Shown here piece after piece: positions 1-9,656 of a stretch of DNA of 9,656 nucleotides. The notes under the pieces were generated by a model. That model was not told where the DNA came from and made no database searches. It worked only from the letters and a program-made list of their open reading frames with translations. The translations under genes were made by a program, and so were the position numbers. The DNA comes from a virus (taxonomy: Duplodnaviria; Heunggongvirae; Uroviricota; Caudoviricetes). The DNA lies in the IMG/VR virus record IMGVR_UViG_2534681992_000031. One strand, given 5' to 3'. Numbering within the stretch: the stretch's first letter is position 1; each line of letters opens with the position of its first letter.

Positions 1-1239
1 ATGAGCAGGGCAATTCATAGACTTAGCGACACTCTTTTACGAAAATTAAGCGGATCACCAACCACAAAAAGCACCTTTTTTAATGATGGTGGCAACCTTA
101 GCGTAAGGCATTCAACCAATGGCCTGTTAACCTGGTATTTCACTTACAGGGCCGGAACTGGTAGGCAGATATCACCGGAACGTCTGAGGCTGGGCAATTA
201 TCCCGATCTGAGCCTGAAAGCTGCCAGGGAAAAAGCGGCACAGTGTCGCGCCTGGCTGGCTGAGGGGAAAAATCCGCGCTATGAACTTAATCATGCTGTA
301 CAGGACGCTTTAGCCCCCGTGACGGTTAAGGAAGCTCTCACTTACTGGCTTGAATCGTACGCAAAGGAAAAGCGCACTGACTACGAATCACTGAAAAGCC
401 GGATCAATAAACACATAATTAGCCAGATTGGCGCTATGCCACTGGAAAAATGCGAGCTACGCCACTGGCTGGCCTGTTTTGACCAGCTTGCTAAGCGTAA
501 TCCGGTATCAGCCGGATTTTTGCTACAGGTGTGCAAACAGGCGCTTAAGTACTGCCGAAAACGACGCTACGCAATTACCAACGTTCTCGATGATATGGTT
601 GTCGGTGATGTTGGGAAAAAAGCAGAAATAAGCGAGCGCGTACTAACAAACAAGGAGCTTGGGGAATTACTACGCGCCCTTGATGAAAAAATTTACCCAC
701 CGTACTACAGCGCCCTGATTCGCCTCCTGATTGTCTTCGGATGTCGTACCACTGAGCTAAGACGCTCTGAGGTCCAGGAATGGGATTTTAAAGAAATGCT
801 CTGGACCGTGCCGAAAGAACACAGCAAAACGAAGGTAGCAATATTCAGGCCAATACCGGAAGCGATCTTGCCGTTTGTCATGAAGCTGGTGGAGCAGAAC
901 AGGCACACGGGATTATTGCTCGGAGAACTGAAAGGGCAATCATCCGTATCAGAGTACGGAAGAACGGCACACAGACGCATTAATCAAGCCCCATGGACGT
1001 TGCACGACATCCGGCACACGTTTACAACGATGCTGAACGATTTAGGCGTTGATCCTCATGTAGTGGAGCAGCTAACCGCGCACCAGTTGCCAGGAATGCA
1101 ACGAGTCTATAATCACTCCCGTTATCTTGATGCAAAACGTGACGCTCTTAATCTATGGGGTGAGCGTCTCGAGCTTCTCCAGAACAATGATGAAAAAATC
1201 GTTGTTATGACCCCGCGAATTTACTCCCAAAATTCTTGA
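1..1239 (+). CDS. int: Tyrosine site-specific integrase, P4-type, 412 aa; may be complete or begin just upstream of the window
   Basis: N-terminal arm-binding-like pattern (RKLSG...NDGGNLSVRHSTNG...WYFTYR...LGNYPDLSLKAAREKA) typical of P4-family integrases; C-terminal catalytic motifs LHDIRHTFTT (HxxR) and VYNHSRYLD (catalytic Tyr). ORF fills the frame from position 1 to the TGA at 1237-1239. Confidence 0.85.
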   Translation: MSRAIHRLSDTLLRKLSGSPTTKSTFFNDGGNLSVRHSTNGLLTWYFTYRAGTGRQISPERLRLGNYPDLSLKAAREKAAQCRAWLAEGKNPRYELNHAVQDALAPVTVKEALTYWLESYAKEKRTDYESLKSRINKHIISQIGAMPLEKCELRHWLACFDQLAKRNPVSAGFLLQVCKQALKYCRKRRYAITNVLDDMVVGDVGKKAEISERVLTNKELGELLRALDEKIYPPYYSALIRLLIVFGCRTTELRRSEVQEWDFKEMLWTVPKEHSKTKVAIFRPIPEAILPFVMKLVEQNRHTGLLLGELKGQSSVSEYGRTAHRRINQAPWTLHDIRHTFTTMLNDLGVDPHVVEQLTAHQLPGMQRVYNHSRYLDAKRDALNLWGERLELLQNNDEKIVVMTPRIYSQNS

Positions 1240-1244
1240 CAAAT

Positions 1245-1276
1245 TACGGCTGTTTTTCTTCGGGAAAATAGCCGTC
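1245..1276 (+). terminator. Hairpin with cUUCGg loop just after the int stop; weak intrinsic terminator candidate
   Basis: ACGGCT(1245-1250) and AGCCGT(1271-1276) pair, with inner TTTTC/GAAAA pairing around a TTCGG loop; followed only by CTT then an A-run, so the U-tract is poor. Confidence 0.25.
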
Positions 1277-1287
1277 TTAAAAAAATC

Positions 1288-1312
1288 GTCGAAGTTCGAC
1301 CAAAGTTCGTCG
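1288..1312. repeat. 13-bp palindrome GTCGAAgTTCGAC plus direct AAGTTCG repeats; candidate protein-binding sites in the int-alpA control region
   Basis: Read directly: gtcgaagttcgac at 1288-1300 is a 6-1-6 palindrome; aagttcg at 1292-1298 and 1303-1309 (11-bp spacing). Confidence 0.35.
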
Positions 1313-1513
1313 TTTTTTTATTTGTCAATCATCGAAAAAATTGAAATTCACTCTCCTGAATCCTTATTCTCTGTTTCTTGATTGTTCCAACACCTGATGG
1401 TTTATCTATTTGTTTTTAATGAGATAATTTAAGTGTAATACCAAATGACGACATTTTTTGTTGCGTCGCTTAAAAACTCGTGACACGATTTTATGAACAG
1501 CAGCAAACTCTAG

Positions 1514-7231: not shown

Positions 7232-9117
7232 AAACATGGTTTTCCATTAAGGCTATGGCAGATGTTGTACATGTGCGCATTTATGACGAGATCGGCGGGT
7301 ACGGTGTAAAGGCATCGGCACTTACTGACGAGATCAACGCGTGCGGTAATGTGTCTGAAATCCATCTTCGCATCCATTCACCTGGTGGCGACATCTTTGA
7401 AGGGCTGGCTATCTATAACGCCCTGAAAAATCATCCGGCAAAGAAAATTGTACACATTGAAGGCATGGCGGCTTCTATGGCCTCGTTTATTGCCATGTGT
7501 GGCGATCACATCGTTATGCCTGAAAACGCGATGATGATGATACATGCCCCCCGTGGTGTTACTGCCGGAGTGTCGGGCGACGTTCGCCGCTTTGCTGACC
7601 TGATGGACAAGCTGGGCGACACGATGGCGGAAACCTACGCCGGAAGAACGGGCAGGAGCAAACAGGAAATCACCGCCATGATGGAGGCGGAAACCTGGAT
7701 GGATGGCAATGAGTGTAAGGCTAACGGCTTCGCAGATGAGGTTATAGCCGCGATTACAGCAATGGCCCGAATTGAATCAAAACGAATCGGAGATTTTTCA
7801 AATATGCCGGAAAAAATTAAAAGCATGATCAGCCAGAAAACTACCAGTGGCGAACAGGAACGACTTAACGGCATCCGTGAATTGTTTGGCACGTTCAACG
7901 GAAGATATAACGACCTGGCTATAAGTTGTCTTGCTGATTCAGAATGTAGCGTTGAGAATGCACGCGAACGCCTTTTACTCGCTATGGGTAAAGAATCAAC
8001 GCCAACAAACAAAACCACCCCCGCAAATCTTTACTACGCGTACACGGATAACGGCAACATAACCGGCGATGCAATGCGCCAGGGGCTTAATGCGCGTCTT
8101 GGTCACGAACGGGCCGAACGCGGTAATCCTTACGCCATGATGAGCCTTTTCGATATGGCACAGGCATCATTAACCCATCGTGGTATAAGCACGGGCAGCT
8201 ACGGCACACGCTCGCAGATAGTAAACGCGGCATTCACCCACAGCAGCAGCGATTTTACCGATATTCTTGCTGGTGGCGCTGAAAAATCAGTGCTTGCAGG
8301 CTGGGAGCACAGCGGCGAAACATTCCGCCAGTGGACGAAAAAAGGTTCCCTTTCAAACTTCCGGGAAGCCCGCCGCGTTGGTATGAATGGCTTCTCAACG
8401 TTAAACAAAGTGCCGGAAGGGGCAGAATATAAATACATCACCACCAGCGATCGCGGTGAACCCATCGCGCTGGCTACTTACGGGAATATTTTCAGCATTA
8501 CCCGCCAGGCGATAATCAATGATGACCTTGATCAGTTATCAACGGTGCCAATGGCTATGGGCCGTGCTGCATCAAGAACGGTGGGAAATCTGGTTAATCT
8601 GGTGCTTACAGGCAACGTAAAACTTTCTGACGGAATAGCGCTGTTTGACAAAAAACACAGCAACCTGATTGAAGCAGGACTGACAACACCGGGACTTAGT
8701 GCAGCACGTCACCTGATGCGCACACAGAAGGACAAAAATGGCGAAGTGCTGAATATTGCGCCTAAATTCCTTTTAGTTCCGGCAGCACTGGAAGATCGCG
8801 CGTTGCAGATGATTAACTCAACCGCACCTTTCGGGGCTGATAAAAACAGCGGGATCTTTAACCCGTATCACAAGCTACTTGATATCATCGTCGATCCCCG
8901 CCTTGATGATATCAGCGAAAAACAATGGTACATGCTTTCCGCACAGGGAACGGACACAATCGAGGTGGCTTATCTTGATGGCAATGACGAGCCTTACCTT
9001 GAACAGCAGGAAGGTTTTATCGTTGACGGCGTGGCCTGGAAAGTCCGTATTGATGCAGGTGTGGCAGCTCTGGATTATCGCGGTATGGTCAAATCAGGCG
9101 GGACAGATTCACTCTGA
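7228..9117 (+). CDS. Fusion of prohead (ClpP-like, S14) protease with HK97-fold major capsid protein, 629 aa
   Basis: N-terminal ClpP-like motifs: HSPGGDIFEGLAIYNAL, the Ser motif GMAASMAS and the His motif MMIHAP. The C-terminal ~400 aa has HK97-family capsid character (FREARRVGMNG, ITRQAIINDDLDQ, PKFLLVPAALEDRALQM). Followed by a strong terminator. Confidence 0.85.
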   Translation: MKTWFSIKAMADVVHVRIYDEIGGYGVKASALTDEINACGNVSEIHLRIHSPGGDIFEGLAIYNALKNHPAKKIVHIEGMAASMASFIAMCGDHIVMPENAMMMIHAPRGVTAGVSGDVRRFADLMDKLGDTMAETYAGRTGRSKQEITAMMEAETWMDGNECKANGFADEVIAAITAMARIESKRIGDFSNMPEKIKSMISQKTTSGEQERLNGIRELFGTFNGRYNDLAISCLADSECSVENARERLLLAMGKESTPTNKTTPANLYYAYTDNGNITGDAMRQGLNARLGHERAERGNPYAMMSLFDMAQASLTHRGISTGSYGTRSQIVNAAFTHSSSDFTDILAGGAEKSVLAGWEHSGETFRQWTKKGSLSNFREARRVGMNGFSTLNKVPEGAEYKYITTSDRGEPIALATYGNIFSITRQAIINDDLDQLSTVPMAMGRAASRTVGNLVNLVLTGNVKLSDGIALFDKKHSNLIEAGLTTPGLSAARHLMRTQKDKNGEVLNIAPKFLLVPAALEDRALQMINSTAPFGADKNSGIFNPYHKLLDIIVDPRLDDISEKQWYMLSAQGTDTIEVAYLDGNDEPYLEQQEGFIVDGVAWKVRIDAGVAALDYRGMVKSGGTDSL

Positions 9118-9123
9118 CAACAA

Positions 9124-9145
9124 GGCGGCACCAGCCGCCTTTTTT
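9124..9145 (+). terminator. Intrinsic terminator downstream of the protease-capsid gene
   Basis: Stem GGCGGC(9124-9129)/GCCGCC(9134-9139), loop ACCA, followed by TTTTTT (9140-9145). Confidence 0.7.
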
Positions 9146-9336
9146 GCGGGTCCTCCAGGTGGGGTGGGCCTGAACACGGGGCGGGCGGCGCGGAAAAAAA
9201 CGCATTTTTTTGATTTTATCGTCATCATCATCATGTTTGTAAGTGATTGTTTTTAATTGCTTTGATGTAAAAAAGATGATGAAGAAGGTTGTTTTTTGTT
9301 CGACATCTTTTAGCGTGACAGATTCTTTACAAAAAA
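9140..9336. repeat. Copy 2 of the duplicated intergenic module
   Basis: Same block order and spacing as 6602..6797: G-rich box with gtgggcctg (9164-9172), catttttttgatttt, aggttgttttttgttc (9286-9301), tttacaaaaaa (9326-9336). Confidence 0.6.
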
Positions 9337-9374
9337 TCTGAGCTTGTTTTCTTCACCAGCGCGATGGGGGCACA

Positions 9375-9656
9375 ATGACAGAAGCCGAAATACTGGGATT
9401 AATCCGCCGCGTCGCCGGAATCAGCCAGCAGGTTGACGAACAGGCCACGCAGCCGGACAGCATGACCGCAGATAATTATGTGCGTGTAGTGGTGGAGGTG
9501 ATGCGCCGTGATGGTATCCAGCTTAATGATGTGGATATGCGCAATATACGAACCAGAGTCCTTGAGTTGCTGGCATACCGTCGCCGTTCTCAACAACGGA
9601 GGGAGAGCGCGAAAAATACTTACCAGTGGAAGACGCCGGAACGGCTGCGGAGGTAA
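9375..9656 (+). CDS. Hypothetical protein, 93 aa, first gene downstream of the capsid gene
   Basis: GGGGG RBS five nt before the ATG at 9375; ORF ends with TAA at 9654-9656. Function unknown. Confidence 0.5.
   Translation: MTEAEILGLIRRVAGISQQVDEQATQPDSMTADNYVRVVVEVMRRDGIQLNDVDMRNIRTRVLELLAYRRRSQQRRESAKNTYQWKTPERLRR

Follow-up and report, generated by a model that had tools for sequence, protein, structure and literature searches.

The window, that is, the whole 9,656-nt stretch of the IMG/VR virus record IMGVR_UViG_2534681992_000031, carries a single gene train that runs almost entirely on the plus strand, as judged from a six-frame list of open reading frames (ORFs) and profile scans (Table 1). 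An integrase gene lies at one end and is followed by alpA; among the supported genes, only that of the YlcI/YnfO family is outside the plus strand. Behind a group of small genes come a primase gene, an iteron origin and a gene for a single-strand DNA-binding protein (SSB), and the late zone consists of a predicted cohesive-end (cos) site (cos1), a 64-aa ORF, a gene for a ClpP-like protease fused to a major capsid protein, a second predicted cos site (cos2) and a 93-aa terminal ORF. The integrase, alpA, small regulators, P4-alpha-like primase, iteron origin and protease-capsid gene listed by a first-pass annotation, made from the letters alone, are all in the window (ORF list, profile scans and hexamer count). 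We put at about 0.85 the probability that the window is an almost whole cos-type phage-inducible chromosomal island (PICI) of the Gram-negative EcCICFT073 family, still dependent on a helper phage for nearly the whole particle. The satellite family is well described, the fusion has a named RefSeq family of its own and other islands of this sort are documented to carry capsid genes; the window is a late-zone variant of a Gram-negative PICI.

EcCICFT073 (1,377,930-1,388,654 of CFT073) is the model Gram-negative cos-type PICI of E. coli (Fillol-Salom 2018, PMC6092414; 2019, PMC6739421). The window resembles it in gene order, in the replication module with its iterons, in the 93-aa terminal ORF and in having a related integrase. 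The encoded proteins are 98.6% (primase), 95.6% (SSB), 77% (integrase), 78% (terminal ORF) and 56% (AlpA) identical to those of EcCICFT073, and the nucleotide identity is 90.6% across window 3088-6576, the iteron region included. Against TIGR01613, the C-terminal domain of P4-family primases, the primase scored 107.7 bits, just under the cut-off of 108.7. TCTACC hexamers occur 12 times in the window compared to ∼2 expected, a count that none of 200 shuffles reached, and 11 of the 12 lie within 5587-5805, directly 3' of the primase gene, where they are paired, alternate in orientation and flank an AT-rich stretch. An origin directly 3' of pri has been reported as functional in Gram-negative PICIs, where pri/ori constructs were tested (PMC6092414).

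The two islands also have in common two cos sites and a capsid homologue in the late zone, without terminase, portal or tail genes. The contents of that zone differ: in EcCICFT073 it encodes a lambda E-like capsid protein, a D-like decoration protein and RppA, with cos sites of the lambda/phi80 type, whereas that of the window lacks Rpp, combines the 64-aa ORF with the ClpP-capsid fusion, and bears cos sites matching a lambdoid lineage whose terminase includes a DUF1441 protein. The capsid and decoration genes of EcCICFT073 (c1499 and c1500) were already noted by Fillol-Salom et al. The integration sites of the two islands differ as well. By these comparisons, the backbone of the window is that of EcCICFT073 with only the late zone swapped.

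The window starts at the ATG of the integrase gene and stops at the stop codon of the last ORF, with no attachment (att) site in it. Among complete genomes the nearest relative, 98% identical over 95% of the window, is that of E. coli O145:H28 RM12581, where the island sits between yljB and clpS. The empty yljB-clpS site of K-12 matches both RM12581 flanks, and the two matches overlap by ∼21 nt at the yljB 3' end, which gives an island of ∼11.1 kb. The complete island measures about 10.6-11.1 kb in near-identical relatives, and the window misses only ∼170 bp of it at the left end and ∼760 bp at the right end, att sites included; as seen in these relatives, the element is a small att-bounded island within the 10-20 kb range of PICIs. 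The integrase of the window is 95-97% identical to the integrases of yljB-clpS islands (loci L001 and L015) and is presumably specific for the same site, the yljB 3' end upstream of clpS. We examined copies from RM12581, two more chromosomal types, three prophage-embedded islands, four islands of a sister clade described below and EcCICFT073, and the 93-aa ORF was the last conserved gene in every one of them. Tail and lysis genes were lacking in the complete copies, nine of them with RM12581 included, as were genes for a portal, a terminase subunit of either size, a head-tail adaptor and a connector; the replication and immunity modules of an ordinary prophage were absent from them too. An ordinary prophage had been kept as the alternative in the first-pass annotation; it is set aside here, as no tail, lysis or phage replication genes lie between the att sites of the relatives.

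A 17-nt direct repeat, AATGGTGTAGTTAATTT, was considered as the att core and rejected, as the K-12 comparison puts the junction at the ∼21-nt yljB block instead. In L001 this repeat lies at 11963-11979 and 22856-22872, inside the island and ∼130 bp and ∼80 bp from the att junctions. TTGTTCG-like motifs neighbour the copies, on both sides of the attP core, and the copies are probably arm-type sites of the integrase. Between the 93-aa ORF and the right copy of AATGGTGTAGTTAATTT, just inside attR, L001 has ∼660 bp without annotated genes (22195-22856). This segment contains three copies of a palindrome, GCAAAATTGC, which may be a regulator binding site.

The capsid gene encodes a 629-aa protein in which Pfam places a CLP_protease domain at residues 42-174 (5.6e-33) and a Phage_capsid_4 domain at residues 331-623 (8.3e-55); Mu-like_gpT was also reported. 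The protein scored 891 bits (cut-off 475) against NCBIfam NF045540, 'ClpP-like prohead protease/major capsid protein fusion protein', so the fusion is a recognised, curated family. These matches bear out the earlier claim of a ClpP protease fused to a capsid protein in one polypeptide. The Ser (AASMAS) and His (MMIH) motifs of the protease line up with those of helper phage proteins. A profile of the C-terminal domain matched solved Mu-GpT-type capsid chains (8rkc, 8rkx and 9jod, E about 1e-8), a family that we take to have the HK97 fold, whereas AlphaFold2 run on the capsid domain with a low-diversity alignment of 13 sequences gave an unusable model (pLDDT 31). The HK97 fold of this domain is thus predicted from Pfam and PDB profile matches; of the HK97-fold capsid protein named in the first-pass annotation, the capsid part stands on the Mu-GpT-type matches and the HK97 label on the fold that we assign to that family. 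The start of the capsid gene is overlapped by the 64-aa ORF, which is probably translationally coupled to it and which had no Pfam, NCBIfam or PDB match.

The fusion is 52% identical to that of a helper prophage, and its best match in a collection of 50,697 phage records has 51-52% identity. No phage in that collection being closer than 52%, the fusion is not a recent capture. Compared with a satellite copy (dS 0.54), the ratio of nonsynonymous to synonymous substitution rates (dN/dS) was 0.09 overall (protease 0.12, linker 0.10, capsid domain 0.07). The fusions of two satellite clades are 62% identical to each other, compared to 51-57% identity to helper proteins, and the linker is 30-35 residues shorter than that of the helpers in both clades. 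Taken together, the alignments indicate that the capsid gene is a selected, long-retained, satellite-specific paralogue of the helper head gene. Its role would most likely be to modulate head assembly, through size redirection, as by Ccm, or through co-assembly with or substitution for the helper shell. The fusion had been called uncommon for such elements. This claim is weak, as the fusion is native in the helper lineage, forms a curated family and is carried by at least two PICI clades, and as the capsid gene is the commonest late gene in Gram-negative PICIs (PMC10111431). In that study, 21 of the 29 reference Gram-negative PICIs had a capsid gene, and transfer was possible without it (Tommasini et al., PMC10111431); enterobacterial PICIs typically carry a capsid or capsid-modification gene (de Sousa et al., PMC10085698).

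The capsid cassette is flanked by a direct repeat of ∼165 nt (6597-6762 and 9135-9301), and a terminator-like hairpin precedes each copy (6584-6602 before cos1 and about 9125-9146 before cos2). The second copy is 71% identical to the first over 115 nt, with a further 21-nt block. The first copy is 90.5% identical over 169 nt to a segment of a lambdoid prophage (L002 8001-8167) that ends 31 nt upstream of a DUF1441 small-terminase gene, and 91% identical to phages 1720a-02 and CP-1639, while the second matches that prophage region at 89% identity over 93 nt. The repeat sequence was found in 23 records of the phage collection, including 1720a-02, CP-1639, VT1-Sakai, several Shiga toxin 2 (Stx2) phages and mEp460. 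The matches come after the lysis genes and before the DUF1441 gene, which is in turn followed by the large terminase gene (checked in the CP-1639 and mEp460 records and in prophage L002). In addition, the mEp460_4F5 record starts exactly at an invariant block, CACGGGGCGG..GCGCGGAAAAA, with its first gene at 189, as in lambda. Because the phage matches are upstream of the small-terminase gene and this record starts within them, we regard the two repeats as cos sites, predicted to be of helper type and to serve the helper terminase. A regulatory RNA and a recombination scar had also been considered for the repeat, and both were dropped after the phage comparisons favoured cos.

The two sites are not equivalent in detail. 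In cos1 a cosN-like core (CACGGGGCGG..GCGCGGAAAAA, at about 6637-6661) is followed by a helper-like cosB-side segment. In cos2 the cosQ/cosN side is nearly identical to that of the helper (core at about 9175-9198) and the cosB side is divergent. It is a possibility that one site serves for initiation and the other for termination only. For EcCICFT073 both a cos1 and a cos2 have been reported, of which cos1 alone was essential (PMC6739421). In the phages with this cos sequence, the head gene is likewise a protease-scaffold-capsid fusion, and this, together with the cos match of ∼90%, suggests that the island is tuned to lambdoid helpers of the Stx type, CP-1639 and mEp460.

The late cassette was found in 151 of 5426 complete E. 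coli genomes. The match was nearly full-length in 143 of these, with the capsid gene intact in at least that many, and an identity of 95% or more was reached by 141 of the best matches; the backbone was matched in 1940 genomes. Many of the listed strains with the cassette are of Shiga toxin-producing E. coli (STEC) serotypes (O157:H7, O145:H28, O121, O111 and O103). PICIs that interrupt the gpA terminase gene of helper-type prophages also have the cassette, at 96-100% identity. These helper-embedded PICIs (HE-PICIs; Tommasini, Mageeney and Williams 2023, PMC10111431) share with the window the 64-aa ORF, the fusion, cos2 and the 93-aa ORF (96-100%) as well as the primase (95%); they differ in carrying a BRO-N gene and in their integrase, which targets the helper gpA gene. 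The window is not an HE-PICI by integrase identity: its integrase is 23% identical to that of the helper-embedded islands and 95-97% identical to those of the yljB-clpS islands, indicating that the window is the chromosomal version with the same late cassette.

A sister PICI clade (L015-L018, protein P0093), seen in 520 blocks of the assembly collection, occupies the same yljB-clpS site, with an integrase 95% and an AlpA 86% identical to those of the window. The order of cos1, small ORF, ClpP-capsid fusion, cos2 and 93-aa ORF is the same, whereas the fusion and the primase are only 62% and 48% identical. The 93-aa ORF is 83% identical to its counterpart in this clade, and the 64-aa ORF corresponds in position to a 69-aa ORF with 38% identity. 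Where EcCICFT073 has RppA, after cos2 and before the 93-aa ORF, the sister clade has a DUF1441 small-terminase-like gene that the window lacks; ∼140 nt stand in the window in place of a DUF1441-bearing segment of ∼630 nt. The sister gene (e.g. L015 12171-12656) is 56% identical to that of the helper and is a candidate counterpart of Rpp where the helper has a DUF1441-type terminase.

Following what is known of the family, the island would pass through a cycle in which the integrase keeps it at the yljB 3' end, upstream of clpS, until a lambdoid helper phage sets off its excision, through AlpA, and switches on the island operon. The primase-helicase would then fire the iteron origin downstream of its own gene, giving rise to concatemers. 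The helper terminase, made up of a DUF1441-type small subunit and a gpA-type large subunit, would recognise cos1, and the island would be packaged into particles built by the helper. The late cassette (cos1, 64-aa ORF, fusion and cos2) would be matched to helpers with a protease-scaffold-capsid polyprotein of the same kind, that is, Stx-converting siphophages, CP-1639, 1720a-02, mEp460 and the lambdoid prophages of STEC. Even with a capsid gene the island is not self-sufficient for capsids, as the portal, terminase, connectors and tails must come from the helper.

Several points weigh against this account. With respect to induction, transfer and the carrier particle, the satellite is known here from its genes, its limits are taken from relatives as the window itself is att-free, and the role of the capsid gene is one that we infer. 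The late zone has no ORF of the size of Rpp (144-153 aa in the literature) and none with a DUF1441 domain, its only Pfam matches being SSB and the ClpP-capsid fusion; in sequence searches of the PDB, the 93-aa and 64/75-aa ORFs had no significant match (no chain at E <= 0.1). As no Rpp or TerS-like protein is encoded, preferential packaging of the island is unexplained except by cos mimicry. Such a protein is common in the PICI family but not universal, and is not reported for 11capE, for example. Given the helper-like cosB side of cos1, the helper small terminase could bind this site directly. Finally, the search for a late-cassette promoter past the terminator in front of cos1 was negative: a promoter scan of the window gave no more sites than shuffled sequences, and none of them was upstream of the capsid cassette.

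Could the island form its own capsid? The first-pass annotation had proposed a satellite that would need a helper only for tails. Capsid-forming PICIs (cf-PICIs), which are defined by terL, head-tail adaptor and connector genes (de Sousa et al., PMC10085698; see also bioRxiv 10.1101/2022.09.08.507074), build their own heads, package themselves and take tails alone from the helper. Those such as EcCIEDL933 (bioRxiv 10.1101/2022.09.08.507074) resemble the window in the int-alpA-primase left half (PMC10085698) and in having their own capsid protein and protease, here in one intact, selected gene. In contrast, the portal, TerS, TerL, head-tail adaptor and connector genes that give cf-PICIs their self-packaging have no counterpart in the complete island, which has two helper-type cos sites instead, pointing to reliance on the helper terminase. 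We consider this proposal very improbable, and the claim of a helper for tails only had to be given up. In a shell-only form of it, the polyprotein would assemble on the helper portal into small, island-sized procapsids, much as with Ccm of SaPIbov5 but with a protease and scaffold of its own, and the terminase, connectors and tails of the helper would finish the particle. The strong purifying selection on all three domains is consistent with such a role, as are the closeness of the satellite clades (62% mutual identity compared to 51-57% to helpers) and the common shortening of the linker by 30-35 residues. Ccm also offers a precedent, and PmCI172, an element with small heads, is suspected to have a capsid homologue (PMC6092414). 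SaPIbov5, with Ccm, is similar in having a satellite homologue of the capsid protein of its cos helper and in using the helper terminase through cos (cited in PMC6092414); it differs in being Gram-positive, unrelated in sequence and without a protease fusion, and the small heads made by Ccm have been demonstrated, whereas the window is known from genes. On the other hand, the DNA packaged for EcCICFT073 is of phage length and that island can do without its capsid gene (PMC6092414), and no size determinant can be read in the sequence. By arithmetic only, four island units (42-44 kb) already fit a helper head of 44-47 kb, so that small capsids are not required. All in all, we regard shell formation by the island as unlikely, and the more specific idea that the polyprotein suffices for island-sized procapsids on a stolen helper portal, with the linker shortening as size determinant, as more doubtful still. 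If island-made shells were true, the island would be an intermediate between classical PICIs, with an all-helper head, and cf-PICIs, with their own head and packaging module.

A different use of the gene would be as a spare or an interfering head gene, which either rescues helpers whose head gene is broken or interrupted or poisons the assembly of helper heads to the benefit of the island. An observation that fits this comes from E. coli O121 RM8352 (L010 16801-18828), in which the fusion gene of the host prophage has an internal stop and that of the embedded island is intact; a 'backup copy' idea has been put forward in the paper on helper-embedded satellites (bioRxiv 10.1101/2022.07.18.500453). 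Nevertheless, the island protein is only 52% identical to that of the helper, which leaves it uncertain whether it could simply replace the helper protein or assemble with it, and the same gene is kept in chromosomal islands outside any helper. We therefore think such a function rather improbable. As to the nature of the backbone, the first-pass annotation had named both P4-like satellites and Gram-negative PICIs, and the identity to EcCICFT073 upholds the second. P4 does share the integrase, alpA and the C-terminal domain of the P4-family primase, and an Icd-like gene is present in the window; yet Pfam, PHROG and NCBIfam scans of the window ORFs gave no homologue of Psu, Delta or Sid, and an Rfam scan gave no CI, C4 or IsrK RNA at E <= 1. 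A decayed prophage remnant would not be expected to have precise ends, many intact copies at several sites and a gene under purifying selection, and neither a P4-like satellite nor such a remnant seems at all credible to us.

Thus, a helper-dependent PICI remains our preferred reading, and one capsid gene does not make a capsid-forming satellite, which corrects a tempting mis-assignment. As the late cassette appears to fit the kind of head and terminase used by Stx-converting and other STEC lambdoid phages, such islands may influence the production of these phages. The purifying selection on a satellite-specific capsid lineage also sharpens the question of what capsid homologues do in PICIs, given that deletion was without phenotype in the one model tested.

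Table 1. Features of the 9,656-nt window, in order of position
Feature	Coordinates	Strand	Support
Tyrosine integrase, 412 aa	1..1239	+	Pfam Phage_integrase 2.6e-18, Arm-DNA-bind_3 1.2e-16
AlpA-type regulator/excisionase, 69 aa	1649..1858	+	Pfam Phage_AlpA 7.9e-18
YlcI/YnfO-family small protein, 59 aa	1994..2173	-	NCBIfam NF041551 3.2e-18
Icd-like protein, 68 aa (P4 Icd family)	2373..2579	+	NCBIfam NF033153 1.5e-19; PHROG 6196 'transcriptional repressor'
Three small overlapping ORFs (2569-2793, 2768-3289, 3282-3515)	2569..3515	+	PHROG 5146; 340 plus 2512; 2196
DUF4222 protein, 124 aa as listed	3521..3895	+	Pfam DUF4222 2.5e-24; synteny with relatives
Primase-helicase (Pri-Rep), 584 aa	3816..5570	+	Pfam D5_N, DUF5906, Pox_D5
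Replication origin, 11 TCTACC/GGTAGA iterons	5582..5809		Hexamer count compared to shuffles
Small conserved ORF	5855..6169	+	PHROG 1231 covers residues 22-102
SSB, 136 aa	6166..6576	+	Pfam SSB 5.7e-17
cos1, predicted helper-type cohesive-end site	6603..6770	+	Match to lambdoid cos region
64-aa ORF	7037..7231	+	PHROG 4934, 2e-42
ClpP-like prohead protease/scaffold-like linker/major capsid polyprotein, 629 aa	7228..9117	+	Pfam, NCBIfam, PHROG
cos2, predicted second cos copy	9135..9301	+	Direct repeat of cos1; prophage cos match
Conserved 93-aa terminal ORF	9375..9656	+	PHROG 1561, 5e-56

Among the remaining features, the window contains no tRNA genes, and the Rfam scan returned only sub-threshold matches at chance level. 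A GC-rich inverted repeat, AAAAGCGCCCCCG/CGGAGGCGCTTTT, at 6800-6845 between cos1 and the 64-aa ORF reads as a minus-strand terminator; its match to a counter-transcribed RNA (ctRNA) was at chance level only (E 0.26). The spacer between int and alpA (1240-1648) is AT-rich (36-40% GC) and free of ORFs. RM12581 has a 774-bp hypothetical gene between these two genes, and in strain 2011C-4251 the spacing is that of the window. The YlcI/YnfO family gene has the same position and orientation in EcCICFT073 and other relatives.

The three small ORFs at 2569-3515 had no Pfam match and matched only PHROG families without an assigned function. In the middle one, which encodes 173 aa (2768-3289), the N-terminal half matched phrog_340 and the C-terminal half phrog_2512 and phrog_24341; relatives have in this zone at least two separate small genes and a frameshifted pseudogene. 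The zone is variable and recombining. The small conserved ORF downstream of the origin probably starts near 5918, and relatives annotate ∼252 bp here. The DUF4222 ORF overlaps the start of the primase gene by 80 nt, whereas in relatives it ends ∼25 codons earlier, at the primase start (∼99 aa); the extension could be due to a lost stop codon or a small indel.

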